Positions 4,358-50,916 are shown, counted from the first letter of the stretch. The stretch is 55,428 nt of DNA from an uncultured Pseudomonadales bacterium (GCA_964509695.1 CAZDXN010000003.1:1-55428); one strand, 5' to 3'. Notes: generated by a model not told the origin, from the sequence alone. Made by a program: numbers and translations.

Positions 4358-5224
4358 TTGCGTGTTCCTGATAAGATACTAGCATATATGGTGAAGAAAA
4401 TGGTTTTGGGGACGCGGGTGGATTTGGTCAGTCAGTCAGAGGCGGTGAATATGGTCTCCGGTTGGATTGAAGTCGGAGGCAAGACCAGAGTAGTAGCAAC
4501 GGCATATAGTGAATTCTTTGTGGCTGCGCTAGGCGACAAAGCCTTTAGAATGGCCCTAGAAGGCTCGGATTTGGTCACCCCTGATGGGATAGGGCCGCTG
4601 GCGGCAATCAGATACCAATTGCTCAGTGCTCAGTGCTCATGGACCATTTGTCATTTGTTAACTGGTTTTAGAGTTGGGGTGGATATTTTGAGAGGGCGGG
4701 TGGGTCAGCCGGTATCCGGATATTGGCTGTTTGAGACTTTGGTAGCGAAAGCGGCCAAGGAGGGCTGGTCGGTGTTCTTGCTGGGAGGATTTGGAGAGAC
4801 GGCGGAGAAGCTTGCACAAAAACTCGAAACTGAAAAAACTCGAAAACTCAAAGTAGAATATGAGGGGGGGGCGCGGAATGAGGCGGAGATGACTGGTGAG
4901 GCAAATGAGGTGGTGATTGAGAAGATAAACAAATTCAAGCCGGATCTGTTGTTTGTGGCCTACGGTCCGGTGAAGCAGGAGAAGTGGTTGGCGGAAAATA
5001 AAGGGAAGTTGAGGGTGAAGGTAGCGATGGGAGTAGGTGGGACGTTTGACGAGGCGCTGGGGTTGGTTCGGGAAGCCCCTGTTGCATTCTCCAAATATGG
5101 TCTAAAATGGTTTTGGCGGCTCCTCCAACAGCCGCAGCGATTGCCCCGTATATTCAAAGCTACCTTTGTGTTTGCTTGGTTGGTCTTTGTCGATTCGCTA
5201 AAAAATAAGAATTTACGAAACTAA
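4358..5224 (+). CDS. WecB/TagA/CpsF family glycosyltransferase (start may be ATG 4388)
   Basis: LVTPDGIG, VFLLGG, INKFKPDLLFVAYGPVKQEKW, MGVGGTFD and GLKWFWRLLQQPQR motifs; carries two short tandem-repeat inserts. Confidence 0.92.
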   Translation: MRVPDKILAYMVKKMVLGTRVDLVSQSEAVNMVSGWIEVGGKTRVVATAYSEFFVAALGDKAFRMALEGSDLVTPDGIGPLAAIRYQLLSAQCSWTICHLLTGFRVGVDILRGRVGQPVSGYWLFETLVAKAAKEGWSVFLLGGFGETAEKLAQKLETEKTRKLKVEYEGGARNEAEMTGEANEVVIEKINKFKPDLLFVAYGPVKQEKWLAENKGKLRVKVAMGVGGTFDEALGLVREAPVAFSKYGLKWFWRLLQQPQRLPRIFKATFVFAWLVFVDSLKNKNLRN

Positions 5225-5246
5225 GAAGTTAGGAATCTACGAATTT
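5207..5246. repeat. Degenerate 8-mer tandem array (AAGAATTT ACGAAACT AAGAAGTT AGGAATCT ACGAATTT)
   Basis: Period-8 array between convergent genes; same family as the array at 42397-42428. Confidence 0.75.
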
Positions 5247-5484
5247 ATTTGGAGATGGGGTTTATTCCGAGCATCCACAGGACGCTTTCTTTTTTGTAGC
5301 GACGGTCGCCGCGGGAGTTGATGCGGATGGCGGGGAGCTTGCCACGCTTGCCCCAGCGCTTGATGGTGAGGGTGGAAACGCGCAGAAGAGTGGCGACTTC
5401 GGAGACGGTCAGCAGGTCGGGGAGGTTGGCGAGATTGACTTCTTGCTTGCCAGCAGGCGGGTCTTTTTTTTCGTTATTGTCCAT
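5245..5484 (-). CDS. Helix-turn-helix DNA-binding protein (MerR/excisionase-like HTH_17)
   Basis: LLTVSEVATLLRVSTLTIKRWGKRGKLPAIRINSRGDRRY. Confidence 0.9.
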   Translation of the reverse strand: MDNNEKKDPPAGKQEVNLANLPDLLTVSEVATLLRVSTLTIKRWGKRGKLPAIRINSRGDRRYKKESVLWMLGINPISK

Positions 5485-5508
5485 ATCTGATATACAAGTT
5501 ATCAGATA
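5484..5508. promoter_or_regulatory. Inverted repeat (putative operator) over the HTH gene start
   Basis: TATCTGATA-N7-TATCAGATA perfect 9-bp inverted repeat between divergent genes. Confidence 0.5.
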
Positions 5509-5533
5509 GGTTATAGAGAGTCAATGGGGTAGA

Positions 5534-7642
5534 TTGAAGATGGGAGACATGTGGTTAAATGAGAGTATGTCAGTGGGTGATGAAAGAGATCCGGAAGTTA
5601 TACAGGTTGGTTCTGGTTTGGTGCGAGTTGAAGCGGGTTTGGTGTTTGATAAAGAAGCTGAATTAAGGAAGACGGTTCTGGCTGAATTGTTGCGCTTAAA
5701 AGTAGTCTCAATTGATGAAAGTCGATTACCTGGCGGCATTATCGTTGATAATCTTAATTTCTTTCGGGGTAAATCGATGGCGAAAGACTCGGATTCGGGT
5801 GAAGATTTGACTGTGTTTGAAGTAATGGAACGGGTCCCTGCGCCAATGAAAAACGGATTGGGAGGTCAAGACTCACAGAAAAATTACTATCACGTCTTTC
5901 GGGACCAGATGGTGGCGACGGAGGAGGATCTAAAGAATGGAGTTGGTGCGAGAGAGATGTTTTTTACCTTGAACGACGCTGCGGATTTGAAAAACCCTGG
6001 TCGATTGAGAGACTATAAGGGGAGGTTTTACTTACTTCTGTCAGAGTTGGGAGGAGAATTTGACGTGAGAAATAATTTTCAGCCGACCAAGAATGAGGGT
6101 TTCGATTCTGGAGTGGATTCTTTTGCGGCCAACGTTTTGGCGATGATATATATTTTGGGTGAAGGAGAACGTGATGAAGACGGGGCGCTTTGGGTAAATA
6201 AGACAAGTGGTGATAGTGCGGAAACACAGAAATTGTCCGGCAGCTGGTTGGCAAGAATGGGTTTTAAATCGTATAGTGGTTTGAAGTGGAGGGATCAACC
6301 GAGAGAGTTGATTGCCAGATACGGCAAAAGTATACCTAATGGAATGTTGAGTGCCGAGGATTTTTCCGACAGAACAAGAGAAAAAATGATCGTAGGCACT
6401 AACGGTCAATTGGTGGTTGAGAATACTAGGATATTTTTTGGACGCAATCGCCTGGGTTACCAAGCGGTCAAAATTTCTAGTGACGGAACGTATGTATTAT
6501 TGAGTCCTGCTGATGCAAAAGGCCAGAGGGCGGTTGACGGGGTGTTCAGAGCCGGTCGGGTGGGGGGAATAATAACGCGACCCAATGTGGTCGAGGGGAA
6601 AGTAATCGGTATGAGGGGGGGGAGTTATCAGGAACGAAAATTACAACCTAGGATAGTAATTCGGCGATATGACGGAGAAGGGAAGGTCCATGCTTGGAGG
6701 GTTGACAGTAAGGTTGCCGCTAGCGGACTACTGAAGCTAAGAGAACGTTTGAAGAAAATCGATCCTACGGTATTACCAAAATTGGATTCGTTACCGTATG
6801 AGAGGCAGCTTTTTTTACTTCACGGTTACATGCAGTTGAATGAGGTTGACAGAGGGAAGTTTGAGGGTGGTTTGGTCAGATGGTCCTCTACCCAGATTGA
6901 GGCAAAATCATATTTGGCTCAGTATAGCGGTTTGGCGACAGTGACCGAGGCGGGTCAAGTTGACGCCAGTTATTGTAAAACAGTCGGACTCTTGCGTAAC
7001 TTTCGACATGTGGTTGAGGGCGAGATAGGTGATGACAGCGAGCCACAAAATCGGTCGCTAATTGAGTTTATAGCTAGGATTACCGAGAGTGTGGCATTTC
7101 GGACGGGGACACTCTTAAGTAAGGTAACCGTTGAGAATGAAGAGGTGGTTCGGGCTGAAATGGATAAATTAAATGGTTTGCTATTGGCGATGGAGTCTTC
7201 GGTGGTGGATTTTGACAAAAAGAATGGATTGAGAAAGACAGCCATATTACGGGACGATAAGGGAGTTGTCTCTAGTATCACGGTTCATCAAAAATTTGGA
7301 TCTCAAGCTGGTGCGGATGAATTGTTTATTACATTTCGACCGGAAAGAAATGATGGCTTAGTAACCAAAGGGGGTGGGCATCCCAGAATTGGTATGACGT
7401 TTAGAAATACTACGGGGAGTTTTAATTTGCGAGTTGACCTAGACAAAAATGGTCTTTCGGTGGATGTTGGTAGTCATAGCGGTGAATTTGCCGGACAAAT
7501 GGCTAAGGCTGGCTTGACACACTATACATATGGAATTATTGACCCGGGTTATCAGAGCCTATTTGGTGCCTACGTTAAGAGGCTGGCTCAGATTTGGGGA
7601 GTTTCTGAATCCACGTGGACACGATCTCGCGGTGTTCAGTAG
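5534..7642 (+). CDS. Hypothetical protein (702 aa)
   Basis: Long uninterrupted ORF with normal amino-acid composition; no family recognised. Confidence 0.8.
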   Translation: MKMGDMWLNESMSVGDERDPEVIQVGSGLVRVEAGLVFDKEAELRKTVLAELLRLKVVSIDESRLPGGIIVDNLNFFRGKSMAKDSDSGEDLTVFEVMERVPAPMKNGLGGQDSQKNYYHVFRDQMVATEEDLKNGVGAREMFFTLNDAADLKNPGRLRDYKGRFYLLLSELGGEFDVRNNFQPTKNEGFDSGVDSFAANVLAMIYILGEGERDEDGALWVNKTSGDSAETQKLSGSWLARMGFKSYSGLKWRDQPRELIARYGKSIPNGMLSAEDFSDRTREKMIVGTNGQLVVENTRIFFGRNRLGYQAVKISSDGTYVLLSPADAKGQRAVDGVFRAGRVGGIITRPNVVEGKVIGMRGGSYQERKLQPRIVIRRYDGEGKVHAWRVDSKVAASGLLKLRERLKKIDPTVLPKLDSLPYERQLFLLHGYMQLNEVDRGKFEGGLVRWSSTQIEAKSYLAQYSGLATVTEAGQVDASYCKTVGLLRNFRHVVEGEIGDDSEPQNRSLIEFIARITESVAFRTGTLLSKVTVENEEVVRAEMDKLNGLLLAMESSVVDFDKKNGLRKTAILRDDKGVVSSITVHQKFGSQAGADELFITFRPERNDGLVTKGGGHPRIGMTFRNTTGSFNLRVDLDKNGLSVDVGSHSGEFAGQMAKAGLTHYTYGIIDPGYQSLFGAYVKRLAQIWGVSESTWTRSRGVQ

Positions 7643-8414
7643 CCGTATTTTCCCAGAGAATCTCGAACAGATCGGAAAAGGTGGCACTGATCGGAACACT
7701 GTCGATAATAGTTGAGATAATTTTGCCTTTGAGGGAGGTAATGGCTACTTTTGAGCCATAGACGATAATTTGTGAGGGAAGGAGGTACTTGGGGTTTTGG
7801 GTGATATGTCTTTCGACGAGCCTATCTTGGTCGTGAAATAGGTAGTTATTTTTGGTGTCGTCTTCTAGGGGAGTAATGGTGCGGGTATGGATATCCAACT
7901 TTATTTGAGCTCTTATTTGTTCATTGATGATTGAGTTTAATTCTTGGTTTTTGTCGTCTAAGACTGAACGGAAAAGGAGAAGATTTTTGGCTAATTTGTT
8001 TATGTCCTTGTACGTTTGTTTTATCCCCTCCAGCCCTTCAAATGAGCTAATTATCGGTCTGATTTCGGTCAGACGGTATGCGCTCTGGAGGTCGGGGAGG
8101 ATGTTTTCGAGATTGGTTTTGGCGGCTTTGGCCTGAAGCTGGATTTGCTCGGAGAGGTCGAGGAGGATGTCTGGTGAATTGGGGGTGAAAGTCGAGGCTT
8201 TGCCCGCCTTTGGCGAGGCATCGCCGGCGAGGCTGGATTTGACCAGCCCGAGTTTGGCAAGCTCCTGACTGACGGTGTAGACGTAGGTTCTTTTGACATT
8301 GGTGGACTTGGCTAGCTGGCTGGCAGATTGGGGTCCGTGGCGGAGGAGGGAGAGATAGATACTTGTCTGGTCGGCGCTCAAATTGAGGCTTTGAAGAAGT
8401 TCTTCCGGTTTCAT
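7575..8414 (-). CDS. TrmB family transcriptional regulator
   Basis: N-terminal wHTH (IYLSLLRHGPQSASQLAKSTNVKRTYVY), FEGLEGIKQ and PLD-like QIIVYGSKVAI; TTGACT-17-TATAGT promoter. Confidence 0.88.
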   Translation of the reverse strand: MKPEELLQSLNLSADQTSIYLSLLRHGPQSASQLAKSTNVKRTYVYTVSQELAKLGLVKSSLAGDASPKAGKASTFTPNSPDILLDLSEQIQLQAKAAKTNLENILPDLQSAYRLTEIRPIISSFEGLEGIKQTYKDINKLAKNLLLFRSVLDDKNQELNSIINEQIRAQIKLDIHTRTITPLEDDTKNNYLFHDQDRLVERHITQNPKYLLPSQIIVYGSKVAITSLKGKIISTIIDSVPISATFSDLFEILWENTATEHREIVSTWIQKLPKSEPAS

Positions 8415-8486
8415 CTACTTCTACTATATGTAAATACTTTCTGACAGTCAAGAGGTGGTTGAGGCTATATTTACTGTCAGGGGGAC

Positions 8487-8515
8487 TTGACAAAGCCCAT
8501 AACATATGTTATATT
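8487..8515 (+). promoter_or_regulatory. Sigma70-type promoter with a palindromic operator in the spacer
   Basis: TTGACA (8487-92), 17 bp, TATATT (8510-15); palindrome ATAACATATGTTAT at 8499-8512. Confidence 0.75.
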
Positions 8516-8521
8516 ACCGAT

Positions 8522-8897
8522 TAATTGATGATTTCTGAATCGTCAAAGTACATTTACATTCGAGTCGGACAACTGATCTTTAGCAATAAGGATCAAAAGG
8601 GGAAAGTTCTTAGCCTTGGTAGGTTGAGAGCAAATACCGCGAAAGTTGCTAATTGACCCACGGGTCGAGGTGCGACGATCGAGACTAATTCAACCGGAAG
8701 CCAATCTGCTTCTGACTCGGGGGAACCCGATCATCAGGAAAGAGAAGCCGAAGGTTACCACAGACACAACAATCCCGCCTCATCTTTTCCTGTCCCTATC
8801 CTACCTGTCCATTTCGCGCAAGCGATTTTAGGTGAGAAGAGATTATGGCGAAGATGGTGGGATAAAGAGCATGAGAAATCGTACTTTTTATCCCACG
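8522..8897 (+). ncRNA. Candidate structured ncRNA (~375 nt), family unknown
   Basis: Follows a strong promoter; several hairpins with GNRA/CACG loops; long-range helix 8560-69 with 8711-20; final hairpin 8857-69 with 8884-96; no SD-led ORF. Confidence 0.55.
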
Positions 8898-8929
8898 GTA
8901 TATCCGGCGCGAATGTTTCTCGTTATCCT

Positions 8930-8957
8930 TGTCATTCCGGACTTGATCCGGAATCTA
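8930..8957. repeat. Half palindromic element TGTCATTCCGGACTTGATCCGGAATCTA
   Basis: Same class as 189-214, 1862-1890 and 13173-13201. Confidence 0.85.
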
Positions 8958-9138
8958 TATAAATAATTTCCCAAAAAGATTGGTTGCCCGATTCGAACAG
9001 TACCTTAAAAAGTCAATTTTCTCTTTTCTTCTTTCGGAAGAACCCGGGCCGCGTGTTATCTGCGCGCCCGGGATTCTCCGGAAAAATCGATGTTTTTTAA
9101 TGCCCCAGCTGGGGCGGCCGCTAAGGAGGCGGTTTTTG

Positions 9139-11418
9139 ATGAAAGCATACAATTTTGTTCGCGGCCATTTGACAGATGGCCTCGCATTAACGACCGATGA
9201 AAAACTCGGTCGAATTGTATTTCTCGGCGAGGTCGGCCGGGGCCGACGCTATGAGAAAGTGGCGTTGGACCGGCATAACCCGCCGGCGGTGGTAGATGGA
9301 CGCGTGCTGGATTGCCAGCCGCGTAAAGTCACCCTCCAGCCGAAAGACGGGAAGCCCGAGAAGATTTTTTACGTTCTCGAGCAGTCCCGCGGTGGTTCGG
9401 ACGCAGTTTTGGTCCGAATTTTTACCGAGGGGACGTACACAAAGAACACCCGTGGGCGTTGGCAAACGATTGCGGGGAATCCCGAGACCATCATCTCGGG
9501 GTACGGCGCCTACGGCGACGCCGGCCGAATTGGCAACTGGGATGATGGCCTCGTCCTCATGCGCCCGGGAGACGTAGTGAAAGTCACGTTATCCGGGGGC
9601 TCGAAGTTTGAGCCGTATGCGATTTGGTTCAATGATGGCGCCCCCCAATGCGCCACTTGGAAAGAGTACGAGACCCTGACCGCGGTCACTTCGGCGCAAG
9701 CCGAGGCGTCCGGGTCGGGTCTCAAAATTCTTTTCGGCCAAATGCCAACCTTCACTTGGTCTCACGGCAAAGTTGAGCCGGGGATCAAGTTGGCCAAGGG
9801 CCTGACGGGCCCGATGGTGTCGTTAGGTGAATCCGGCCGGGGGCGCACCTTGACCGAGGTGCCTCTGGTCAACTACCCCGTCGAGGGGAAGTTGATCGAG
9901 GCGGCCGTAGCCGTCCTCAAAGAGGAAACCAAACCTTCCCGTTATCCCGGGGGTGAGCCGGAGACGAAAGTCTCTTACGGCTTGACCCAAGGGGCCGCGA
10001 AGGAAGCTGGTTCTGGTTTCCTAGTCAAAGTCTCGAGCTCGTGGGTTTATACCCGTGGGTCGAGTCCGGAGATCTCTGCCTGGAAAGGTAACTCGACTTT
10101 TCTGGCGGAAGGCCGGGGGGCTGAAGGCGATGCTGGCCGGATTTATGATTGGCCGGAAATCCTCGTTGTCCTCCATGAGGGTGACGTTCTTTTTATCCGT
10201 CCGGAAGGCGGATACAAAGTTCGTTCATACACCCTCTTCGTAAAAAACGGTCAGTTGAAAACTGAGCCGTGGGTGACCTGGAAGGTTGAAGACGCGAAGC
10301 GCGACCCCGAGTTCTATGTCGCTAAGGGAACTGCGCCTTCGGCGGGGCTTGTGCCCGCCGAGTGGATTGGGAGGGTCGTTTCCGTCCAGGTCCTCGAGAA
10401 TAGTCGCGATCAAGGCGATCATCTCGAAGAAAAACAGGTCGGTGAGGTCATTTCCATTTCGCCCTTGGTGTTGAATCTGGGGTGGGACGGTCAGGACCGC
10501 TACGACGTGACGATCAATCAGGCGACCTGGGTCCGCCTCGAGAGGGACAAGAAAGTAGTCCGACTCGGAGGCGAAGCCGCCGAAAAGCGGCAGTCGCTTC
10601 GGGCGAGGTTGGAACAGTTGATGGTCGAGGCTGGACAGGCCTTGGCCAAAAGCTACACCTCTCTGGCCAGCGAGGAACTGCGGAAGGAATTGTACGACGC
10701 TTCCCGCAGTTATTACTGGACGCTCGACACCCTGCCCACCGAGGGATGGGGGAATACGATCAGTGCTTTCGTCGAAAAGGCCGAAGCGACCCTGAAGCAA
10801 TTCCGGGAAGTTGAGGCCGAACTTCAAGCCCGCGAAGCGGCCGGAAAGTCGGGTGAAATGATGCCCGATTACCGCGTCCGCCTTGGTGGGTCGAAAAATG
10901 GCCGAGCCGTGGAAACGGCTTGGGCTATTTTGCCGGATGGTTCGACTGTGACCCCGAAAGGGGATTACGGCGAAGCCATTTTCGGCGATTTGACCCCGAC
11001 GGCGCTCGTAGTGACTCATCTCGAGTCCAACTACGGCTACCGCTACTCGGAGGCCTGGATCGTCGCTCATCTGCCCGCCAAGGTGACCGAGGCCCAGAAG
11101 GCCAAGGTTGTCGAGTTGGGGCAAACCGCCCACAAGTACTTCGTGGGCGGCAAGACCGGCTGGGACCTCGCCGAAAAAGAGGTCTACTTCCAGACCGCCT
11201 ACGACCGGGACTTCCGGACGGAGGAGGAGTTAGCGGCCAATCGCGAGATGACGGCCGCCTTCCCCATTGATTTGGGGATCTGGAAAGTAATGCGTTCCTG
11301 CGAGTCCGGGAAGCGCACGGTCTGGGCAGAACGCCGGACCGAGGGCGATTCGAATCGCCCGAGTGAGGTGATGGCGATGGCCTTCAAAGCGGCCGTGGCC
11401 AAGCGCCTCGATGACTAG
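9139..11418 (+). CDS. Hypothetical protein (759 aa) with a tandem-duplicated ~200-aa domain
   Basis: AAGGAGG SD before ATG 9139 (preferred over the track's GTG 8980); GxGAxGDAGRIxxW motif twice, 204 codons apart. Confidence 0.85.
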   Translation: MKAYNFVRGHLTDGLALTTDEKLGRIVFLGEVGRGRRYEKVALDRHNPPAVVDGRVLDCQPRKVTLQPKDGKPEKIFYVLEQSRGGSDAVLVRIFTEGTYTKNTRGRWQTIAGNPETIISGYGAYGDAGRIGNWDDGLVLMRPGDVVKVTLSGGSKFEPYAIWFNDGAPQCATWKEYETLTAVTSAQAEASGSGLKILFGQMPTFTWSHGKVEPGIKLAKGLTGPMVSLGESGRGRTLTEVPLVNYPVEGKLIEAAVAVLKEETKPSRYPGGEPETKVSYGLTQGAAKEAGSGFLVKVSSSWVYTRGSSPEISAWKGNSTFLAEGRGAEGDAGRIYDWPEILVVLHEGDVLFIRPEGGYKVRSYTLFVKNGQLKTEPWVTWKVEDAKRDPEFYVAKGTAPSAGLVPAEWIGRVVSVQVLENSRDQGDHLEEKQVGEVISISPLVLNLGWDGQDRYDVTINQATWVRLERDKKVVRLGGEAAEKRQSLRARLEQLMVEAGQALAKSYTSLASEELRKELYDASRSYYWTLDTLPTEGWGNTISAFVEKAEATLKQFREVEAELQAREAAGKSGEMMPDYRVRLGGSKNGRAVETAWAILPDGSTVTPKGDYGEAIFGDLTPTALVVTHLESNYGYRYSEAWIVAHLPAKVTEAQKAKVVELGQTAHKYFVGGKTGWDLAEKEVYFQTAYDRDFRTEEELAANREMTAAFPIDLGIWKVMRSCESGKRTVWAERRTEGDSNRPSEVMAMAFKAAVAKRLDD

Positions 11419-11427
11419 TGTCTTTCT

Positions 11428-11468
11428 GGGGTGGCGGGTTTGTAACCCGCCACCCCAATTCTATTTTT
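11428..11468 (+). terminator. Intrinsic terminator-like hairpin
   Basis: GGGGTGGCGGGTT-TGT-AACCCGCCACCCC followed by AATTCTATTTTT. Confidence 0.7.
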
Positions 11469-11537
11469 CTGAAAGAAGAGGAGAGAATGTGTTCGATTGA
11501 AGTAGTTTCGTTTTGCCTGCCTGTGAAGCTTGACCCT

Positions 11538-11576
11538 GGACAGGAATCAGGTGACGCAGGCGGATAAGACGAAATT
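11538..11576 (+). repeat. 39-bp direct repeat, copy 1
   Basis: GGACAGGAATCAGGTGACGCAGGCGGATAAGACGAAATT. Confidence 0.9.
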
Positions 11577-15573: not shown

Positions 15574-15616
15574 GTGTTTGTTTGTTAATTAATAATTACT
15601 GGAACCTGTTTCGAGT

Positions 15617-15735
15617 AATTTTTAATTTTCAGTTTTCAATTTGCAGTGAATTTCCAATTGCCCAATTTATAAATAAGTTTGAAAATTTGGGATTTGAAAA
15701 TTTTTTGGAAATTGTAAATTGATAATTGTAAATTA
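15617..15735. repeat. Two inverted heptamer arrays (TAATTTT/CAATTT.. and AAATTGT..) with no gene inside
   Basis: Left arm TAATTTT TAATTTT CAGTTTT CAATTTG; right arm GAAATTG TAAATTG ATAATTG TAAATT. Confidence 0.7.
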
Positions 15736-16260
15736 TTTTTTGATTCTGATGGCGTCGAGGGCATAGACCAGTAATTGGGCTGGAGTGGCGAGCTGACGAA
15801 CCAAGGCTTGGGCTGGAGCTTGGAGTTGGGCGAGGAGAGAGGCGAGGAGCTGTTCGCGGCTGGCCAACTTGCTGAGGACTTCAATATCCTTGATAGAGAG
15901 AATCTTGTCGTCCATTAGGCCGAGCTTGATTTCGGGGAGATTTTTGTCTTTGTCCTTGATGAATTCAGCTAGGGCTTTGGTGGTGGTGACGGCGTCGGTT
16001 TGGGCAAAGATGACGGCGGTGGGACCATTGAGGACGTCTTCGACGTCTTTGGGGAGAGTGCCGAGCTTTTCGGTGAGGGCGAGCTTTAGGAGGTTGTTCT
16101 TGGCGACCATGAATTCACCACCGGAGGTAGCGATTTTGGAACGGAGCAGGGTTTGCTCGGAGACGGAAAGGCCGGCGTAATTGGCCAGAATGACCGCCTT
16201 GGCGGTTTCTAAGCCGTGTTTGACTTCGGCGAGAGAGTGGACGTTTCTTTGACTAGGCAT
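15733..16260 (-). CDS. rplJ: 50S ribosomal protein L10
   Basis: ANYAGLSVSEQTLLR, VAKNNLLKLA, LNGPTA and LSKLASREQLLASL; directly upstream of rplL. Confidence 0.97.
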   Translation of the reverse strand: MPSQRNVHSLAEVKHGLETAKAVILANYAGLSVSEQTLLRSKIATSGGEFMVAKNNLLKLALTEKLGTLPKDVEDVLNGPTAVIFAQTDAVTTTKALAEFIKDKDKNLPEIKLGLMDDKILSIKDIEVLSKLASREQLLASLLAQLQAPAQALVRQLATPAQLLVYALDAIRIKK

Positions 16261-38781: not shown

Positions 38782-39396
38782 TCAAGAGAGGTTGAGATAG
38801 AGGTTGTCGCCGATGACGGTGGATTTGATATCGGAGAAGCCAGTTTGTTTGGCTAGATTAGCCAGTTCGTCGGCGGTGAAGGAATAAAAATCGCGGGAGG
38901 GACCGGAGTGGAAGGGAATTGACAGGTGTTTTGAGTTGGTGCGAAAACGGTCGAACTTGGGTTGGTCCAGACGCCAGACAGAAATGAGACAGGAGCCAGT
39001 TGAATTGAGATGCTGCTTTATATTTCGGAGTAGTTTGATGTGGTCGTCTGGGGAGGGGAGATGATGAAAGACGGCGAGAGCGGCGACAAAATCGAATTGC
39101 CCGAGTTCGTCCCAAATGGACTGGTCAAGAATGTCAGCCAGAATGAATTTGCCTACAGGGTCAGACCCCGTAGCTTCTTTGATGAGAACGGCGCTGAAAT
39201 CGAGGCCGGTGTAGGTGACGGTTTTGGGTAGGGCCGTTAGGAGGACGCCATTGCCGCAGCCCAGATCGAGGACGGAGGCGTTTGATTCGAGTTTGGGAAG
39301 CAGAGGAATCACCTCCGGCGACAATTTCTGTCTGGTTGCGCTAAAATTAAGGCCGATTTGGTCGTACGTAGAGGCGATTTTTTGTGAATCAAACAT
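38782..39396 (-). CDS. Class I SAM-dependent methyltransferase
   Basis: VLDLGCGNG, YTGLDFS, FDFVAALAVFHH; TATAAT is 7 nt before ATG 39396. Confidence 0.92.
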   Translation of the reverse strand: MFDSQKIASTYDQIGLNFSATRQKLSPEVIPLLPKLESNASVLDLGCGNGVLLTALPKTVTYTGLDFSAVLIKEATGSDPVGKFILADILDQSIWDELGQFDFVAALAVFHHLPSPDDHIKLLRNIKQHLNSTGSCLISVWRLDQPKFDRFRTNSKHLSIPFHSGPSRDFYSFTADELANLAKQTGFSDIKSTVIGDNLYLNLS

Positions 39397-40861
39397 GAAA
39401 CATATTATAAAGCCAGTGATAAAGCCGGGGCGGTCGATGTCCGGGGTGACGCCGCTGGCGGCGATGATGAAGCCGTTCAATTGTCCGGGGGAGTGTATCT
39501 ACTGCCCGCTGGAGTTAAACATGCCCAAGAGCTACCTTTCGGACGAACCGGCGGCTCAGAGGGCGAAGAAACTGAATTTTGACGCCAGGGCCCAGATCTC
39601 CCAGCGGTTGGAACAACTGAAGATGAACGGCCATCCGACGGACAAGCTGGAGATTATCGTGGTTGGGGGAACGTACTCGGCTTACCCGACCGATTACAAA
39701 ATTTGGTTTATTGGCGAGATTTATCGAGCCGCAAACGAAACAAAAAGACCTCTCCCTCTTCTCCCCCAATTACCTCACCCCACCCCTCCCCTTGATAAGG
39801 GGAGGGAGAAGAGGGAGAGGTGTGAGTGGGAAGAGAAGGTTTTGGCTGAAATAAAAATAAATGAAACTGCCAAACAGAGAATCGTAGCTCTTTCTGTAGA
39901 GACTAGACCTGATTGGGTGACTGAGGCTGAAGTGCGACTACTGCGAAGGCTAGGAGTGACGAAGGTCCAGCTGGGAGTACAGGCGATTGATGAAGAAATC
40001 AGTCGGATCACCAAGCGGGGGCACGGACAAGCCGAAGTGGCCGAGGCGACCAGACTCTTGCGGAATGCGGGGATGAAGATTTGCTATCACATCATGCCGA
40101 ATCTACCCGGAAGTGATCCGAAGAAAGATGTCGAGATGGCAAAACTAATCTATACCGACCCCCGGTTCATGCCAGACTACGTCAAGCTTTATCCCTGTAT
40201 GGTGATCAAGGGAACGGCCTTGTATCGACTGTGGCAGAAGGGGCAATTCAAAACCTATGACGATGAAACCTTGAAGAAGGTCCTCAAGGAAATCAGCGCC
40301 ATTACTCCCGAGTGGGTCAGAGTCGACCGGCTGATACGGGACATCTCAAAAGGTTGGGTGGGGGCAGGAAGCGTCAAAACGAACATGAGACAGGAAGTAG
40401 AACGGGAGTTGATTGCCGAGGGGAGACCTTGTCGGTGTATTAGATGTAGAGAAATTGGAGCAGGAAGTTACGAAGATACGAATTTAGAATTTAAGGCGAT
40501 TGAATTAGCAACAATTGGGGGGAGGGAAGTGTTTTTTAGTTACGAGAATGAACACAAATTGTTTGCACTCCTTCGCCTGCGACTGCCTGACCCTTCAGAG
40601 AAGATGTTGTTTCCGGAATTAAAAGAGGCGGCGATCGTTCGGGAGGTTCATTCTTATGGTCAGGCGGTGCCGCTGTCGACCCGAAGAGAAGGCAAATCTC
40701 AACACCAAGGTTTGGGGCGGCTTTTGATGGAGAAGGCCGAGGAGGAAGCGGTCAAAAACGGGTACAAAAAGTTGGCGGTCATTGCCGCCGTTGGGACGCG
40801 GGAGTACTACAAAAAATTGGGCTATGTCTTGGAAGGCTTATATATGGTGAAGACGTTCTAG
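39395..40861 (+). CDS. elp3: Elp3 family tRNA U34 acetyltransferase (radical SAM plus GNAT)
   Basis: CPGECIYCP, GHPTDKLE, SVETRPDW, VQLGVQ, RVDRLIRD, CRCIRCRE, REVHSYG and QHQGLG; palindromic insert at 39749-39826. Confidence 0.94.
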   Translation: MKHIIKPVIKPGRSMSGVTPLAAMMKPFNCPGECIYCPLELNMPKSYLSDEPAAQRAKKLNFDARAQISQRLEQLKMNGHPTDKLEIIVVGGTYSAYPTDYKIWFIGEIYRAANETKRPLPLLPQLPHPTPPLDKGREKRERCEWEEKVLAEIKINETAKQRIVALSVETRPDWVTEAEVRLLRRLGVTKVQLGVQAIDEEISRITKRGHGQAEVAEATRLLRNAGMKICYHIMPNLPGSDPKKDVEMAKLIYTDPRFMPDYVKLYPCMVIKGTALYRLWQKGQFKTYDDETLKKVLKEISAITPEWVRVDRLIRDISKGWVGAGSVKTNMRQEVERELIAEGRPCRCIRCREIGAGSYEDTNLEFKAIELATIGGREVFFSYENEHKLFALLRLRLPDPSEKMLFPELKEAAIVREVHSYGQAVPLSTRREGKSQHQGLGRLLMEKAEEEAVKNGYKKLAVIAAVGTREYYKKLGYVLEGLYMVKTF

Positions 40862-42431: not shown

Positions 42432-42806
42432 ATGAGTTACGATAAAATTCAGAGTTTTCGAGATTTGCTTGTTTGGCAACAGGCTCACCAGTTGGTACTA
42501 TCGATATACAAAACAACAAAGACTTTTCCTCGGGAGGAAATGTACTCATTGGTCGATCAGATTAGGAGAGCGGTTGTGTCTGTAACCAGCAACATAGCCG
42601 AGGGTTTTGGCAGGAGGTCTTACAAGGAAAAATTACAGTTTTATAATCTAGCTATGGGTTCGTTGACGGAGGTTGAGAATCAAATTGATATCAGCCACGA
42701 CCTCGGATATATTTCTCGAGCATCATATGACGAATTCGTTGAGAGAATATTGTCGGTGAAAAAGTTACTTAATCGTTTAATGACGGCTACGAAATCTTAT
42801 TCGTAG
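42432..42806 (+). CDS. Four-helix-bundle protein (23S rRNA IVS protein / bAvd-like family)
   Basis: FRDLLVWQQAH..FPREEMYSLVDQIRRAVVSVTSNIAEG..FYNLAMGSLTEV. Confidence 0.95.
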   Translation: MSYDKIQSFRDLLVWQQAHQLVLSIYKTTKTFPREEMYSLVDQIRRAVVSVTSNIAEGFGRRSYKEKLQFYNLAMGSLTEVENQIDISHDLGYISRASYDEFVERILSVKKLLNRLMTATKSYS

Positions 42807-42836
42807 ATTCGTATATTCGTGAATTCGTAACTTCGT
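42797..42836. repeat. 8-mer tandem array, right arm (inverted relative to the left arm)
   Basis: TTATTCGT AGATTCGT ATATTCGT GAATTCGT AACTTCGT. Confidence 0.85.
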
Positions 42837-43436: not shown

Positions 43437-43473
43437 GGATAAAGTATACAGGAATATGTTAGAATATGTGCCT

Positions 43474-44461: not shown

Positions 44462-44470
44462 AATCGGGGA

Positions 44471-45202: not shown

Positions 45203-45211
45203 AATCGGCAA

Positions 45212-45958
45212 ATGGCAAGAATGGGTGAGTGTCTCGATCCGTATGGGGGATGTTGTGGAATTTGGAGTCATGAATTGGTTGGGGATTTTCCGGGGTATTT
45301 GCGGGTAGAAGCCTTTGGTGGGGAGTGGTCGGTGACGTATCTTAATGAAGAAGCGGGTTGGATGTCTGGAATAGCCTGGTCGTCCGAAGGCATTGTCATT
45401 GCTTCCGACGATCCTGTGGTGAAGTGTCATTACGATTTGAATGGTGAATTGGTAGCGGTGAAATTGGGACTCACTTCGCTGGTGAATCGTTTTGCGGAGC
45501 AAGGGATGGATCCGCATTTGGTTAATCAAAGTGACTGGAGTAGGCTAATCGATCTCGCCGACGCGGGAGATGAAATAAAGTTGGTTGTATTCTTCGGGGA
45601 TGATGAGTTTTCTCCCTATTGGTGTCTTTTGAGAACAAAGATCGGTCAGGAAAGCGGAGAGGCTTTAGAAGTTCAGGTGATCGATCGGATTTTGATGAAC
45701 CTTAGTGTGGGGAATGATGAACCCCTATTTGTCCGACCTTTGGGAGGATTTGATTTAAAATTTCGGTTGTTGATTGATGAAGGCGAGATGCGTTTTGGAG
45801 TGGTTGGTGAGGAGGACGAAGTTCCGGATCTAGTCATTCGACGGAATGTGGATTTTACCAACCTTAGAAATAGGATTCGATTTGACCGGGAAGCAAAGTG
45901 GCGGGATCTAAATAGCACTCTTGGTCGGGTCAGTTCGGCTTTGAAATTGTTGCCATGA
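45212..45958 (+). CDS. Hypothetical protein, tandem paralogue 3
   Basis: YDLNGEL and AGDEIKLVVFF; TAGAAT-6-ATG. Confidence 0.8.
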   Translation: MARMGECLDPYGGCCGIWSHELVGDFPGYLRVEAFGGEWSVTYLNEEAGWMSGIAWSSEGIVIASDDPVVKCHYDLNGELVAVKLGLTSLVNRFAEQGMDPHLVNQSDWSRLIDLADAGDEIKLVVFFGDDEFSPYWCLLRTKIGQESGEALEVQVIDRILMNLSVGNDEPLFVRPLGGFDLKFRLLIDEGEMRFGVVGEEDEVPDLVIRRNVDFTNLRNRIRFDREAKWRDLNSTLGRVSSALKLLP

Positions 45959-46927
45959 GATGGGGGTTTTGCCGGGAAGTTGAACTAGATCAATTTTCAA
46001 TTTACAATTTTTAATTTTCAAATAATTTTCAAGAGAGGTTCGAATAATTTTCAATTCAAGATTGCCAATTTTCGTCCAGGCGCCGGGATCGGGATTCAGT
46101 GAACGAATCAATGCATGAATTCGTTCACATTTGACATTGCTCATTTGACATTGCTCATTTGACATTTGAGATTTTTCAAGACATGGTTTTATTTCTTCCC
46201 AGGGGATGAAGGCGGATTGGCGGTTTCTGGTTTTGGTGGTAGAGGTGTAGGTGGCGAGGGTTTCGTTTTGGTGGGTTAGAAGAACCTCACCCCGTCCCTC
46301 CCCTTGATAAGGGGAGGGAGAAGAGGGAGAGGTAAGTGAGGATATTTTGGGAAGGTACTCGGCGAGGAGTTTAATGCCGCCTTGGGTAAGTTTGTTCGTC
46401 AGAGTTTCACAATTGTCGTTTATATCAATACTAACTTTTTCTTGGGAAATGATTGGTCCGGTATCCATTCCCTCATCCATAGCCATCAGGGTGACGCCGG
46501 TTTCGGAGTCCTGATTTTTGATCGCCTCGCTGATACACAGGGCGCCGCGGTATTTGGGAAGCAGAGAAAAGTGGAGGTTAAAGGTGCCGATAGTGGAAGC
46601 GGTCAACCAAGGCTTTGGAATGATCTTGCCGTAACTGACGACGAGAAAGAGATCGGGTTTTAGGAGTTTGAGGTGGGCCAGGTTTGCCTCGTCGAGTTTC
46701 TCGGGTTTGAAAACTGGGAGATTGTATTCGGTAGCGAGTTGGGCGACGGGAGACGGAGTCAGGATTTGTTTCCGACCGAGGGGTTTGTCGGGTTGTGTGA
46801 CTACCCCCGCGAGGCAGAAAAGGACCCCCTCTTTATCTCCCCCTTCGCTAGGGGGAGAGTTTTTTATTAGGGATTCGAGGATTTCGGCGGAGAAGGCGGG
46901 AGAGCCGAAGTAGACTAGGTTCGTCAT
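45908..46927 (-). CDS. fmt: Methionyl-tRNA formyltransferase with several repeat-derived inserts
   Basis: VVTQPDKPLGR, VVSYGKII, NLHFSLLPKYRGA, MDEGMDTGPI and IRSLNPDPGAW. Confidence 0.96.
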   Translation of the reverse strand: MTNLVYFGSPAFSAEILESLIKNSPPSEGGDKEGVLFCLAGVVTQPDKPLGRKQILTPSPVAQLATEYNLPVFKPEKLDEANLAHLKLLKPDLFLVVSYGKIIPKPWLTASTIGTFNLHFSLLPKYRGALCISEAIKNQDSETGVTLMAMDEGMDTGPIISQEKVSIDINDNCETLTNKLTQGGIKLLAEYLPKISSLTSPSSPSPYQGEGRGEVLLTHQNETLATYTSTTKTRNRQSAFIPWEEIKPCLEKSQMSNEQCQMSNVKCERIHALIRSLNPDPGAWTKIGNLELKIIRTSLENYLKIKNCKLKIDLVQLPGKTPISWQQFQSRTDPTKSAI

Positions 46928-47490
46928 AGGTTGATTGGCGAGAGGCCGTTTTCAGTTTCGCACAGGATTTGGCCCTTTTGTTCGATAATCCGGTCAGTGA
47001 AGAGGATGCCGTTGAGGTGATCGATTTCGTGCTGGATGTAGGCGGAGGAGACGTCACTGAATTCTTCAGTGACAGTTGACAGTTGACAGTTGACAGTTGA
47101 CAGTATGGGTATTTGGTATTGGAGTTTGATGGAGTAGGGACGGTCGACGAATCCCCAGATCTTGGGGATGGAGAGACAGCCTTCGAGCCAGCGGTCCTTC
47201 TTCTTTTTGTAGACGGAGCTAAGCATTTTCTGACTGATGGTGATGATTTCGGGGTTAATGAAGACCTTGGTGGTTTGTCTTTCCTCATCAAGGAGAATAA
47301 AGAGGCGTTTGTCGAGGCCAACTTGAGTGGCGGCCAGACCAACGCCCTTGGGATTGGTGGTGTGTTTGAGGATTTCTGCCATTTGGGCCACTTCTTTGGC
47401 GGTTTTCTTGTCCCAACCACGAATAGGCTTGGCCTTGTGCTTTAGGAATGAATGGGGTGTAGTCAGAATCTGCATATGGTCAGTTTTCAT
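46924..47490 (-). CDS. def: Peptide deformylase
   Basis: GVGLAATQVG, EGCLSIP and QHEIDHLNG; (GACAGTT)n insert at 47071-47105. Confidence 0.97.
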   Translation of the reverse strand: MKTDHMQILTTPHSFLKHKAKPIRGWDKKTAKEVAQMAEILKHTTNPKGVGLAATQVGLDKRLFILLDEERQTTKVFINPEIITISQKMLSSVYKKKKDRWLEGCLSIPKIWGFVDRPYSIKLQYQIPILSTVNCQLSTVTEEFSDVSSAYIQHEIDHLNGILFTDRIIEQKGQILCETENGLSPINL

Positions 47491-47887
47491 ACTCTTTTGG
47501 TGTTGTAGCTTTGCAGAAATTGTTTTTTAAAAGTTGTTTGTCCCAAGTGATAAGAGTGGCCTTGTTTAATTTGGTTGTGAGGGCAATAATTAGATCTGAA
47601 GTTTTTAGGGAAGACCGATTGGTTTTTAAGAAGGTGGCTAGGTCTTTAATGCTTTCCCTATTTATTTCCGAGAATTTCATCTGTGAAAAAATTTGGAATA
47701 TTTTTTCTAAATTTATAGCGCCATTTTGTCTTAAAATAACGACTACTTCTGCAGCTACTAAAGCTGGTAAAATTATTTGAGTGTTAGTTTGAGATATTTT
47801 TTGGAAAAATGATTTTGATTGGTGGGTGAGACCATCTTTCCCGAAATGAGAGATAAATACACAGGAATCAATGACGATTTTTTTCAC
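47480..47887 (-). CDS. PIN-domain toxin (VapC-like)
   Basis: IVIDSCVF, VAAEVV, KTSDLII and LITWDKQL. Confidence 0.9.
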   Translation of the reverse strand: MKKIVIDSCVFISHFGKDGLTHQSKSFFQKISQTNTQIILPALVAAEVVVILRQNGAINLEKIFQIFSQMKFSEINRESIKDLATFLKTNRSSLKTSDLIIALTTKLNKATLITWDKQLLKNNFCKATTPKEYEN

Positions 47888-48133
47888 CTAGTCTCTTTGT
47901 TTTCTGATTAGATTTATAGCCGAGTCTGACAACTTGACGCGAAGGGATTCTGGGTAGTCGGCTAGCATTTTTAGAGTTTGTCGATGGGGGGACATCCCTT
48001 TCTGCTTTGTTTTAATTACCAAGTCAGCGCCTTTTCTTATCAATTCCGACAAGCTAACGTTTTCGATCTTTGCCAAGTTTATTAGGTTGGCGTGCGTTTC
48101 TTCCGGTAGATATATTTGGGTCCTAGTCATCAT
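47888..48133 (-). CDS. CopG/RHH antitoxin
   Basis: RTQIYLPEE..LAKIENVSLSELIRKG; TTGACA-17-TAATAT-6-ATG. Confidence 0.88.
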   Translation of the reverse strand: MMTRTQIYLPEETHANLINLAKIENVSLSELIRKGADLVIKTKQKGMSPHRQTLKMLADYPESLRVKLSDSAINLIRKQRD

Positions 48134-48211
48134 AAATTAATATTAATGTATACATCACTATTTGTCAATAATCGCACCATTGACTTATAGTACAGGCGAA
48201 CTTAGAATCGG

Positions 48212-48985
48212 ATGATGGAGAAATTGTTGGAGCAAAGATGGGGGAGGGTAATGCGCTCACCCGAAGAGGTGTCAATGATTACCGATTTGGCTTGCGATCT
48301 GTGTGGAGGCGATGAGATGGAGGCGGAGAAACTGATTCATCGGGTATTATTTGAGATGCACAACCGGACTTGGGGTCTCAGCCTTCATGAGGGTGATCAG
48401 GACCAGCCGTTGGTGGAGACCAAGATGGTTTGCGAATATTTGAGGTTGGCGGTTGAGAGTCAGAGACCTAGCGATTTTCGGAAGTTGACCGAGAGGGCGG
48501 TGAATTTGGCGGCCAAGCGGCCTCACCAGATTTTGTTGTATCGATCGATGGTTCATGAGATGGGTGGGGAGAGAGAAGTAAGAGCTTTTGAGAAAGCGTT
48601 GGTTTCGGTGGGAGCGCATCTACCTCCGTTGGATGACGAAGACGTTCAAATTTATCAGAGGTTGGTCGGCAAGTCTTATTGGGAACTGGACTTGGATATG
48701 CTAAGACGGGTCTTTATATCAAATTTTTTGGCTTGGAAAGTTGGTATGCTCAAATTTGAGGAATTGGAAGAAGAGGAGATTCGACAATCGGAATTTCAAG
48801 CGGAAGTTTCGGTTTTTCTGACTGGAGTTCGGGCTGAGTTGAGACGAATAGCTAGGGTGATTGTGGCGAAAAAGGCCGTACCCGAAAGGAAGACGCCGGG
48901 ATTTTTCAGGAAGGAAATAGATGAGGATGATGATTCGACAGACGTAGGGATTGATATGGAGACGGCGCGGTCGTTTCTGGATTAG
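48212..48985 (+). CDS. Hypothetical protein (257 aa)
   Basis: Helical, acidic C-terminus; TAGAAT just upstream. Confidence 0.75.
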   Translation: MMEKLLEQRWGRVMRSPEEVSMITDLACDLCGGDEMEAEKLIHRVLFEMHNRTWGLSLHEGDQDQPLVETKMVCEYLRLAVESQRPSDFRKLTERAVNLAAKRPHQILLYRSMVHEMGGEREVRAFEKALVSVGAHLPPLDDEDVQIYQRLVGKSYWELDLDMLRRVFISNFLAWKVGMLKFEELEEEEIRQSEFQAEVSVFLTGVRAELRRIARVIVAKKAVPERKTPGFFRKEIDEDDDSTDVGIDMETARSFLD

Positions 48986-50916
48986 TTTTTGGTGAGAGTT
49001 TTGAGGGAGGCGCGGGCGGCATCGTAGTCGGGCTTCAAATTGATGGCTTTTTGGAAATATTTTTTGGCGGAATCGTTTTTTCCGGTGCTTTGGTAGAGCA
49101 GGCCGAGGTTGTAGGCGACCTTGGCGTCGGTGGGCGAGAGCTCGAGGAGGTTTGTAAGTGTCTGAATGGCTTCTTGATTATATTTAGGGTCAATAGTACC
49201 AAGATAAAGTTCGACCTTGGTTCGGCTTTTGTAATAATTCCCTTGGTATGGATTCATGGCGATGGCTTTGGTGGAGTTTGTGTCTGCCTGAATAATAAGA
49301 TCATTCATCAGTTGGACTGCTCCCGGTTTGTCAACCTGGCTTTTGATAGATGAAGCGGCCATGGCTTGGGCTTCGGCCAATTGCGCCCAGAAGAGGGGTT
49401 CGTCAGGAGAAATTCGGACGGCTTGTTCGAGATAGTCTAGGCTGGGCTTTAGGAGCTGTTGGTTGAGAGTTTGTTTGCCGCGGTTGTAGGCAAGGTCGGC
49501 CCTCCATTGGTTGACGGGGATTAATAGTAAATAAATGGTAATTAATAGTAATAGGGGGAGAGATAGCCATTGATTGATGTGGAAGTTGATAGATAGATGC
49601 TTTTCGATGGTGTCGCTATTGACTGAGGCGATGGCGGGGAAAAGAAAAAAGAAAAGGGCGACCGGGACGACCGAGAAGCCAAAGTAGTTGGTGATCATGA
49701 TGCCGAGATAACCAAAAAATAGAGGCTCGGGCCAGAGGAGCAAGAGGGAAGCGAGATTTAGAAAGAGATAGGTGGCGAGGCCGAAGAAGCCGGTGTTGGC
49801 TAGAGTATTGAGATATTCGTTGTGGGCTTTGTTGTAGAGGAATTCCCACTCGGAAAGGAGGTTGTGGATGGCGGGGCGGACTGAGAAATAAGAGTAGCCA
49901 AAGGTTTCGACGCCGGAACCAAAAAGAGGATTCCTCTTGGCTAGTTCCCGAGCTCCTTGCCAGACGACCTGACGAATAATCAGGGAGTCGGAGCCGCCGA
50001 TGCGCTGTTTCTTGTCCTGAACGACGAGCTGGTCCAGATTGGGAGGTCCGAGGGGGCTAATTTTTTGGAAGAAAGACCATTTGGAAGCGACCAAGAAAAT
50101 AGCAAGGGTGATGAGGGGAAGTGACATGAGTAACTTTTGGTAATTTGAGGTAATTGGTTGTAATTTTTTGACTAAGAAATAGACCAACATGGCGGCGAGA
50201 ACGACGGCGGTCGCGCCGAGGCCGGATTGGGATTTGGTGAACCAAATGGTGAGGAGGAAGAGAGTTGTCAGTAGGCAGTTGACAGTGATCAGTTTTTTGG
50301 TCTTGGCTTTGACGGCGAGGAAGATGGGGAGGGGGAGGAGAGCGACGAGATAGGCGGAGAGCCAGTTGGGCTGACCAAGGGTGGAAAAGACGCGGTTTTG
50401 GACGTCTTGAACCCAGAGCGACTTGTCGATACCGAAGTGCTCGGCGATTCCGTAGAGCGAGACCAGGGTGGCCGATGAAAGAATTGAAATGAGGACAAAT
50501 TTGATTTTGTAAACCTCTCCCTCGGACTCCCTCCCCTTGGTAAGGGGAGGGATGGGGTGAGGTGACATGTTGGTGACAAAAGCATAATAGAGAACGATGT
50601 AGGAGATGGTAGACATAAGCCCGCCGTGGAAGCGGGAGTAGTAGCCCCAGAGGCTGGTGTGAGTGTCGATGCTGAAAATAGTTGACAGAATCTGAGAAGC
50701 TAAGAAGAGAAGAATGGGAAGATCGAGGGGGGTGCGGCGGATGGTGATTTTCTTTTGGTTGATCCATTTGACTACCCAGGCGGCGGAGATGAGGATAGTT
50801 AGGACGTAGACGAGGAGCATTTTGTTGAACTCAAAGACCTCGGAAGTACCCGGCCAGAGGACGAGGGGGATGAAAAAAAAGAGGGCGTAGAAGAGGGACT
50901 CGATCAGCTTTGACAT
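48982..50916 (-). CDS. O-antigen ligase family polymerase with C-terminal TPRs
   Basis: RVFSTLGQPNWL, TKSQSG, PLFGSGVETF, KAHNEYL and C-terminal TPR helices; palindromic insert at 50513-62. Confidence 0.93.
   Translation of the reverse strand: MSKLIESLFYALFFFIPLVLWPGTSEVFEFNKMLLVYVLTILISAAWVVKWINQKKITIRRTPLDLPILLFLASQILSTIFSIDTHTSLWGYYSRFHGGLMSTISYIVLYYAFVTNMSPHPIPPLTKGRESEGEVYKIKFVLISILSSATLVSLYGIAEHFGIDKSLWVQDVQNRVFSTLGQPNWLSAYLVALLPLPIFLAVKAKTKKLITVNCLLTTLFLLTIWFTKSQSGLGATAVVLAAMLVYFLVKKLQPITSNYQKLLMSLPLITLAIFLVASKWSFFQKISPLGPPNLDQLVVQDKKQRIGGSDSLIIRQVVWQGARELAKRNPLFGSGVETFGYSYFSVRPAIHNLLSEWEFLYNKAHNEYLNTLANTGFFGLATYLFLNLASLLLLWPEPLFFGYLGIMITNYFGFSVVPVALFFFLFPAIASVNSDTIEKHLSINFHINQWLSLPLLLLITIYLLLIPVNQWRADLAYNRGKQTLNQQLLKPSLDYLEQAVRISPDEPLFWAQLAEAQAMAASSIKSQVDKPGAVQLMNDLIIQADTNSTKAIAMNPYQGNYYKSRTKVELYLGTIDPKYNQEAIQTLTNLLELSPTDAKVAYNLGLLYQSTGKNDSAKKYFQKAINLKPDYDAARASLKTLTKN

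Follow-up and report, generated by a model that had tools for sequence, protein, structure and literature searches.

Heptanucleotide repeats are reported to be over-represented among bacterial simple sequence repeats (SSRs), and a link to the footprint of the polymerase active site has been proposed (PMC4692102, citing Mrazek 2007). The known cases named in that article include the short tandemly repeated repetitive (STRR) sequences of cyanobacteria and the GGGNATC repeats of Xanthomonas and Nostoc. Here, tandem arrays of 7-nt and 8-nt units are described that are translated in frame inside housekeeping genes, among them def and fmt, on contig CAZDXN010000003.1 of assembly GCA_964509695.1. This contig, analyzed over its full 55,428 nt, is referred to as the window. 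It belongs to a draft genome (G000) of 0.96 Mb in 55 contigs, with 46.6% G+C and a completeness of 87%, and the source names attached to homologues assign the organism to Candidatus Collierbacteria within the Candidate Phyla Radiation (CPR, or Patescibacteria). The arrays resemble the prokaryotic heptanucleotide long SSRs, as these are outlined in PMC4692102, in that tandem 7-nt units occur at many loci with a period-specific excess, in that one locus can differ in unit and in length even among close relatives, and in that slippage is the proposed cause. They differ from the cases cited there in several respects. Most of the G000 arrays lie within open reading frames (ORFs) and are translated, whereas the STRR, Xanthomonas and Nostoc repeats are, by that account, mainly intergenic. 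In G000 an array holds about 5 units and the upper limit is sharp, whereas the Nostoc array holds 26; the G000 units are A+T-rich rather than G-rich and are accompanied by an 8-nt family. In literature searches on SSRs and microsatellites, no account of arrays of this kind in CPR/Patescibacteria turned up. What the present analysis adds is a series of arrays at one site in peptide deformylase with lineage-specific, uniform units, length steps of 21 nt, and the patchy distribution of two unit families among genomes of the family.

Our preferred reading, to which we give a probability of about 60%, is that the arrays are long simple-sequence repeats produced by slippage or misalignment and filtered by selection, and that they are not switches. 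The arrays were called with Tandem Repeats Finder (TRF), and the expected numbers were taken from five third-order Markov shuffles of the genome. Genome-wide, 123 arrays of period 7 were called, compared with 16–32 in the shuffles (about 5-fold), and 72 of period 8, compared with 22–32 (about 3-fold). The double periods behaved in the same way, with 26 arrays of period 14 (1–6 in the shuffles) and 16 of period 16 (0–4 in the shuffles), while no excess was seen at periods 10, 11 and 13. Periods 9, 12 and 15 were enriched, as is expected of coding repeats. With an excess over the shuffles at 7, 14, 8 and 16 and none at 10, 11 and 13, the arrays are a real feature of the whole genome and are specific to periods 7 and 8. 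For 123 arrays of period 7/14, the location was within ORFs in 80 (about 65%), intergenic in 18 and at ORF edges in 25, counts that are approximate because the ORFs are rough, greedy longest-ORF calls. The arrays are richer in A+T than the genome (71% versus 53%). The median span is 32 nt for the 7/14-mers and 36 nt for the 8/16-mers, alike in ORFs, ORF edges and intergenic DNA, in a length distribution whose lower end is cut by the TRF score thresholds. Short arrays of 2–4 units are many.

The host genes in the window and the arrays within them are as follows.

4358–5224, plus strand: wecG/tagA-family glycosyltransferase gene, 288 aa (Pfam PF03808, Glyco_tran_WecG, E=5.8e-39), with two arrays inside
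4620–4639, plus strand: first wecG array, perfect (TGCTCAG)x2.9, then CATTTGTCATTTGT at 4646–4659 (TRF and sequence reading)
4818–4852, plus strand: second wecG array, an 8/16-mer array of the AAAAACTC, or (AARAACTC), family; TRF score 54; peptide KLETEKTRKLK
45908–46927, minus strand: fmt, methionyl-tRNA formyltransferase, 339 aa (Pfam PF00551, Formyl_trans_N, and PF02911, Formyl_trans_C)
46127–46174, minus strand: first fmt array, the 14-mer CATTTGACATTGCT x2.8, perfect (corresponding to 6.9 heptamers); TRF score 78; peptide KSQMSNEQCQMSNVKCE
45990–46021, minus strand: second fmt array, (TCAATTT)x4.6 by TRF, with sense units TTGAAAA/TTAAAAA/TTGTAAA; peptide ENYLKIKNCKLKID
46924–47490, minus strand: def, peptide deformylase, 188 aa (Pfam PF01327, Pep_deformylase, E=2.9e-35; PDB matches)
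47070–47104, minus strand: def array, perfect (ACTGTCA)x5 on the sense strand ((TGACAGT)x5.0 on the plus strand); TRF score 70; peptide LSTVNCQLSTV
48982–50916, minus strand: gene for a Wzy_C (O-antigen ligase/polymerase-like) and TPR membrane protein, 644 aa (Pfam PF04932 and TPR families)

A sequence-only reading of the window had proposed that 7-mer and 8-mer arrays sit inside wecG/tagA, fmt, def and the O-antigen ligase gene. TRF called arrays in the first three, while the one in the ligase gene is weak, as described below. The peptides and gene identities given in that reading agree with translation and with Pfam, and the def array is indeed perfect, although it has five units and not the four of the proposed (GACAGTT)4. 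In comparisons with relatives, for which one genome per species and short metagenomic contigs were used, the arrays proved to be DNA-level features specific to lineages; they are translated in frame, in loops of housekeeping enzymes that tolerate them. The placement of the arrays in the proteins was judged by alignment to solved structures of Def, Fmt and TagA, relative to which they fall in inserted or variable segments, and not from AlphaFold models. Such models, suggested as a check with the sequence-only reading, were built for Def and Fmt on shallow alignments of close relatives. They were of low quality (mean pLDDT of 42 for Def and 61 for Fmt) and gave little beyond a rough hint of secondary structure. 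The catalytic motifs are unbroken in both Fmt (HFSLLPKYRG) and Def (GVGLAATQ, EGCLS and HEIDH). Fmt matches PDB Fmt entries with E values down to 5e-33, and its gene, which overlaps def by 4 nt, contains two palindromic inserts along with the two arrays.

The Def array is located between the EGCLS and HExDH motifs, in a segment that is 7 aa longer than in the Thermotoga Def 1LME. Def DNA was taken from nine homologues in independent assemblies, and heptamer arrays were present in all nine, at one site and in one nTG register, with differing units, as listed here by lineage.

Window and sister lineage: (ACTGTCA)5
P0008: (ACTGGCA ACTGAAA)2 and a fifth unit ACTGTTT
P0011: (CTGGCAG CTGGAAA)2
P0012 and L091: (ATTGGAA)3-4
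P0015: ATACTAA/ATACTGG/ATACTAG
P0018: (CTGAATT)2(CTGGATT)2

The divergence of the arrays between lineages is 18–51%, which is approximately equal to or above the third-codon-position divergence of the remaining gene (22–49%). Because the arrays diverge between lineages yet each is internally uniform, the Def loop represents the concerted evolution of an orthologous array. In two lineages (P0010/P0251 and P0017), independently of one another, the array has two units instead of five and is exactly 21 nt, or 7 aa, shorter. The five-unit peptide is retained in 10 further near-identical Def sequences, and the 12 near-identical sequences from other assemblies show two states only, 5 or 2 units, both in frame. 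The (ACTGTCA)5 array itself is identical across several assemblies. In the congeners G004 and G005 the Def loop has an equal length and a Trp at the same place, and its DNA is non-periodic; in G002 and G003 the loop is 6 residues shorter.

Upstream of def, relatives (loci L084–L086) carry an RHH-PIN toxin-antitoxin pair. At the matching position the window has a 135-aa ORF (47480–47887, minus strand) that overlaps the start of def.

In Fmt, the first array (46127–46174) has the sense-strand units CAAATGT/CAAATGA/GCAATGT. The closest relative, P0125, has (CAAATAT)2 CAAATCT CAAATG at this site and is exactly 21 nt shorter, while P0126 has (AGCAATG)x3, P0131 three AGCAATG-type units and P0129 five units. 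The second array (45990–46021), a member of the (AAAATTG)n family, brings 6 codons that most orthologues lack. Its DNA is identical in the window, P0125 and P0126, lineages that differ by 11–19% overall, and in P0257, from the same 90% cluster, it is replaced by a different, GC-rich insert of 22 residues. Compared with orthologues of the same family, the window's Fmt has the extra array-derived peptides KPCLEKSQMSNE... and ENYLKI, and likewise the extra GC-rich peptides PSEGGDKEGVL and SSPSPYQGEGRGEVL. The Fmt loops are hot spots for several kinds of insert.

Other features of the Fmt homologues were also observed. Inserts of other kinds occur at these loops in P0127, P0128, P0135, P0136 and P0147, and in P0129, P0137 and P0257. 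Examples include a peptide that recurs close to the N-terminus, (V)ARPPAYAVCG, and, in the C-terminal hairpin, KCHPGLDPGS... or KCHPRESG.... The protein encoded by the last approximately 50 codons of fmt (45908–46060), the array included, is identical or nearly so in P0125, P0126 and P0128, and a DNA comparison of approximately 24 codons around the second array showed identity in P0125 and P0126. This conserved 3' end may be a recombination tract, or it may reflect constraint from the convergent ORF at 45212–45958, which overlaps fmt by 51 nt.

In WecG, the PDB TagA structures 7MPK/5WB4 align with aa 16–83 and 116–267. The first array, with the peptide SAQCSWTICHLL over 4620–4661, lies within a 32-aa segment where TagA (7MPK) has 8 aa, and its length is equal to that of the matching segment in five congeners. 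Where the WecG loop of G000 holds (TGCTCAG)2.9, the orthologue of G012, from another genus, carries (AAGAACTC)4, a perfect array, so the same tolerant loop was used independently. The second array is found at the end of the block that can be aligned to TagA and is one codon longer than in congeners. The arrays had been taken for inserts in the sequence-only reading. Orthologue alignment supports this for both Fmt arrays, which add codons, and for the second WecG array with its single codon, but not for the array of Def or the first one of WecG, which stand in place of segments of equal length.

The Wzy-like gene contains two repeat segments.

50262–50296, minus strand: weak, degenerate period-7 segment, CTGATCA CTGTCAA CTGCCTA CTGACAA; peptide ITVNCLLTT
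50139–50166, minus strand: 10-mer array GGTAATTTGA x2.8 (TRF), underlying a 9-codon insertion, LQPITSNYQ

The period-7 segment has 18 of 28 lag-7 matches and received no TRF call. Clusters of this kind number 10 at lag 7 in the window, compared with 2–5 at lags 5, 10, 11 and 13, and the segment by itself is indistinguishable from chance. It brings no change in length and aligns without gaps to the start of a hydrophobic helix, probably membrane-spanning, in all orthologues, and for the ligase this is the outcome that the sequence-only reading had itself named as a refutation. The LQPITSNYQ insertion is absent from all aligned orthologues.

Beyond the window, two unit families recur across the genome. 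(AARAACTC)n was found at 14 loci in G000, 13 of them in genes and all of these in the sense orientation; all 14 arrays span 28–38 nt, mostly 34–38, and their flanks are unrelated. (AAAATTG)n was found at 8 loci. The possibility that the arrays are dispersed mobile elements was rejected, since arrays with the same unit share no flanking sequence. The earlier suggestion of one mobile or repeat-generating process is thus upheld only in its second half: there is a single genome-wide repeat-generating tendency, intergenic arrays included, while the arrays are not footprints of a mobile element, given the unrelated flanks of same-unit arrays and the inheritance and alteration in place of orthologous ones. 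An amplification of abundant 7-mers was also considered as the source of the units and was set aside, as the median genomic count was 241 for the units and 203 for random 7-mers, a weak effect at best. Among sampled relatives analyzed with TRF, 8-mer arrays were in excess in G010 and shared the unit of G000, and G020, from another family, had a 7-mer excess with different units.

The MutS_V domain was found in none of 31 genomes of the order, in a search whose control was positive in 11 of 14 reference genomes. With no MutS_V in any of these genomes, MutS-dependent mismatch repair seems, on the basis of the domain searches, to be absent from the entire order. This loss may be a permissive condition for the arrays, but it is not a sufficient one.

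Under the slippage reading, the generator would be slippage or transient misalignment, and selection alone would account for the in-frame state. An intrinsic bias of replication or repair misalignment toward steps of 7–8 nt would create the arrays, with their units of 7 or 8 nt and double units of 14 or 16 nt, and would keep them internally uniform in an A+T-leaning CPR genome without mismatch repair. The arrays would arise and persist in weakly constrained sequence, that is, between genes, at gene ends, and in surface loops with residues of hardly any importance. Purifying selection in essential genes would retain only stop-free, in-frame arrays within tolerant loops, and the translated "alien" peptides would be by-products. 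Because only frame-keeping arrays would survive selection, length changes would be expected to come in steps of three units or multiples of such steps, each of them 21 nt or 7 aa; all length differences at the Def array, and that between the window's Fmt and its closest relative, are of three units, or 21 nt.

Several observations weigh against this reading. If slippage were combined with selection acting in genes alone, longer arrays would be expected between genes, but the span is narrow regardless of context, with intergenic maxima of 34 nt (7/14-mers) and 38 nt (8/16-mers), and near-perfect period-7 tracts form a shoulder at 30–34 nt and then drop steeply above approximately 36 nt. The recurrence of one unit at many unrelated loci is not predicted by independent local slippage. 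Across 44 species-representative genomes of the family, (AARAACTC)3 was found in G000, in none of its five congeners, in 5/5 genomes of genus g8 and 10/14 of genus g6, and in none of six other genera, while (AAAATTG)3 is nearly restricted to G000, with 0/5 congeners and 1–2 loci in three other genomes. The loss of MutS does not discriminate either, since G004, a congener without an array excess by TRF, also lacks MutS. Homogenization without a change in length is hard to explain by slippage, and steps of 7 nt in an essential gene would have to pass through frameshifted intermediates. An alternative reading is an active, sequence-aware process, either templated repair or synthesis or ectopic gene conversion between arrays, that writes or overwrites patches of approximately 4.5–5 units. 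Such a process, which we regard as possible but rather unlikely, would install arrays, maintain their uniformity at constant length, and spread unit families within a genome and between lineages. In its most specific form, a tentative proposal, a "patch-homogenizing" process of certain CPR lineages would convert permissive stretches of approximately 32–36 nt, genic and intergenic, into approximately 4.5–5 copies of a 7/8-nt unit with the length unchanged, and through ectopic conversion or a templated activity it may maintain uniformity and spread units (AARAACTC, AAAATTG) across loci and genera. Consistent with this are the uniform span in every context, the equal-length replacement in Def and at the first WecG site (with one extra codon at the second), the ABAB and AABB unit patterns at a constant total length, the multi-locus families with unrelated flanks, and their patchy distribution over the 44 genomes. 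The (ACTGTCA)5 array is also unchanged between two lineages that differ at 9.8% of other def positions; however, approximately 46 nt beside the array are identical between them as well, so the zero differences may mark a locally conserved or recombined tract. The abundance of arrays with 2–4 units is as a growth process predicts, and the score thresholds of TRF bear on the apparent narrowness of the spans at their lower end. No enzyme or template emerged as a candidate. Reverse-transcriptase-templated writing was rejected as a general cause, since RVT_1 occurs in only 4/15 (AARAACTC)-positive genomes and is missing from the richest of them, G012.

The other explanations are far less probable. 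The sequence-only reading had ascribed phase-variation potential to the arrays, which would then be contingency loci where the gain or loss of one 7/8-nt unit toggles the host gene, as in the SSRs of Haemophilus and Neisseria. The arrays are similar to the contingency SSRs of Haemophilus, Neisseria and Campylobacter in being intragenic, in having a unit that is not a multiple of three, so that a single-unit change would potentially shift the frame, and in their background without mismatch repair, the loss of MutS being known to raise SSR instability in model organisms. In addition, wecG and the Wzy-like gene belong to the envelope genes, among which such switches are typical. In contrast to contingency loci, the hosts include the essential housekeeping genes def and fmt, many other genes also carry arrays, and one array forms the 3' end of gltX and hence its C-terminal tail. 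Only in-frame alleles, in three-unit steps of 21 nt, were seen in 12 Def and 7 Fmt near-identical sequences, from protein databases that under-represent broken alleles. No gene split by a frameshift at an array, and hence no off-state gene, was found in G000 among 9 screened candidates, 4 of which were translated and proved to be adjacent genes or gene ends. With approximately 5 units the arrays are short for efficient switching, and the identity of (ACTGTCA)5 in several assemblies adds to the case against it. Phase variation is therefore very unlikely, and the proposal is not retained. Selection of the peptides at the protein level, for instance of the Def beta-hairpin L-x4-W-x-L, with the DNA period as a side effect, finds some agreement in Def, where a Leu/Trp/Leu pattern occupies constant positions of the loop in most homologues, the non-periodic versions of G004 and G005 among them. 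It is nonetheless highly improbable, because the units are identical even at synonymous positions, the window's Def array has a Cys where others have the Trp, and the periodicity also occurs between genes, while no 7-nt period is expected from protein selection. An artefact of assembly or binning might be suspected in a metagenome-assembled genome that is a 55-contig draft and 87% complete. Its probability is nearly negligible, as the same or orthologous arrays, all of which keep the frame, appear in independent assemblies (ENA, NCBI and Logan) from several projects.

The same genes also hold in-frame inserts of a second, palindromic kind. The element pal1 is a nested palindrome of 50–53 nt, ACCTCACCC..TCCCTCCCCTTGATAAGGGGAGGGA..GGGAGAGGT, with approximately 12 copies in the genome at 91–100% identity. 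It is the origin of the GC-rich peptides of Fmt and the ligase, and it was not listed in the sequence-only reading. The copies have the common ends ACCTCaCCC ... GGGAGAGGT and thus inverted ends, ACCTC...GAGGT. The copies in the window, together with pal2, are as follows.

251–303: pal1
2018–2069: pal1
3378–3430: pal1
39772–39821: pal1, by coordinates inside a 548-aa ORF (39215–40861)
46284–46333: pal1, 50 nt, in frame in fmt, SPSPYQGEGRGEV
50513–50563, minus strand: pal1 by pattern match, in frame in the Wzy-like gene, PHPIPPLTKGRESEGEV
46823–46861: pal2, a GC-rich hairpin segment in fmt, SPPSEGGDKEGV; a second copy lies on contig C43 (97% over 39 nt)

The copy in fmt is absent from the 89%-identical Fmt of P0125 and brings a net gain of 13 codons, while the copy in the Wzy-like gene is a clean insertion of 18 codons that is missing from all eight aligned orthologues. 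No target-site duplication was evident in the alignment of the copies, although no systematic search was made. The pal2 segment is a 12-aa insertion relative to the PDB 4IQF Fmt and is common to P0125, P0127, P0129 and P0132. The pal1 element is dispersed and mobile and represents a separate class of in-frame insert that is unrelated to the heptamer arrays. It is similar to the Rickettsia palindromic elements (RPE) and to repeats like miniature inverted-repeat transposable elements (MITEs) in its dispersed near-identical copies, its palindromic structure with inverted ends, its in-frame insertion, and the empty sites of orthologues. RPE are roughly 100–150 nt long. At 50 nt, pal1 is much shorter, and the likeness drawn here is one of structure. 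The heptamer arrays are unlike RPE in that they are not dispersed copies with defined ends.

Five pal1 copies, three in the window (with the motif at 239–250, 2000–2011 and 3366–3377) and one each on contigs C21 and C23, share the upstream motif (G)GGATGACAG or a similar one, which directly precedes four of the copies and lies 7 nt upstream of the one at 2018. Because of this shared motif, these copies may be part of a larger composite repeat.

More period-7/8 clusters are present in the window, at 4308–4372 upstream of wecG, in a dense intergenic group at 15604–15851, and at 38965–39002, which by coordinates is within an ORF (38782–39480). An 8-mer array at 42799–42836 adjoins a four-helix-bundle gene. 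The GC skew is strongly positive over the whole contig (0.11–0.39 in 2-kb windows), though genes lie on both strands, and other contigs of the genome have an equally strong skew of either sign.

For annotation, the arrays should not be read as phase-variation switches and should be kept distinct from the mobile palindromic mini-elements. If the slippage reading is true, a mutational repeat process, and not adaptation, would be behind part of the lineage-specific insertions and "alien" loops of CPR proteins, loops that make these proteins difficult to align and to model. The Def loop offers a clean natural series for the study of microsatellite concerted evolution under the constraint of a reading frame. 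The narrow size of the arrays and the patchy, multi-locus occurrence of their units go beyond textbook slippage and hint at features of replication or repair in bacteria without MutS. A patch-homogenizing process, if it exists, would give ultra-small genomes a new means of turning over protein loops.

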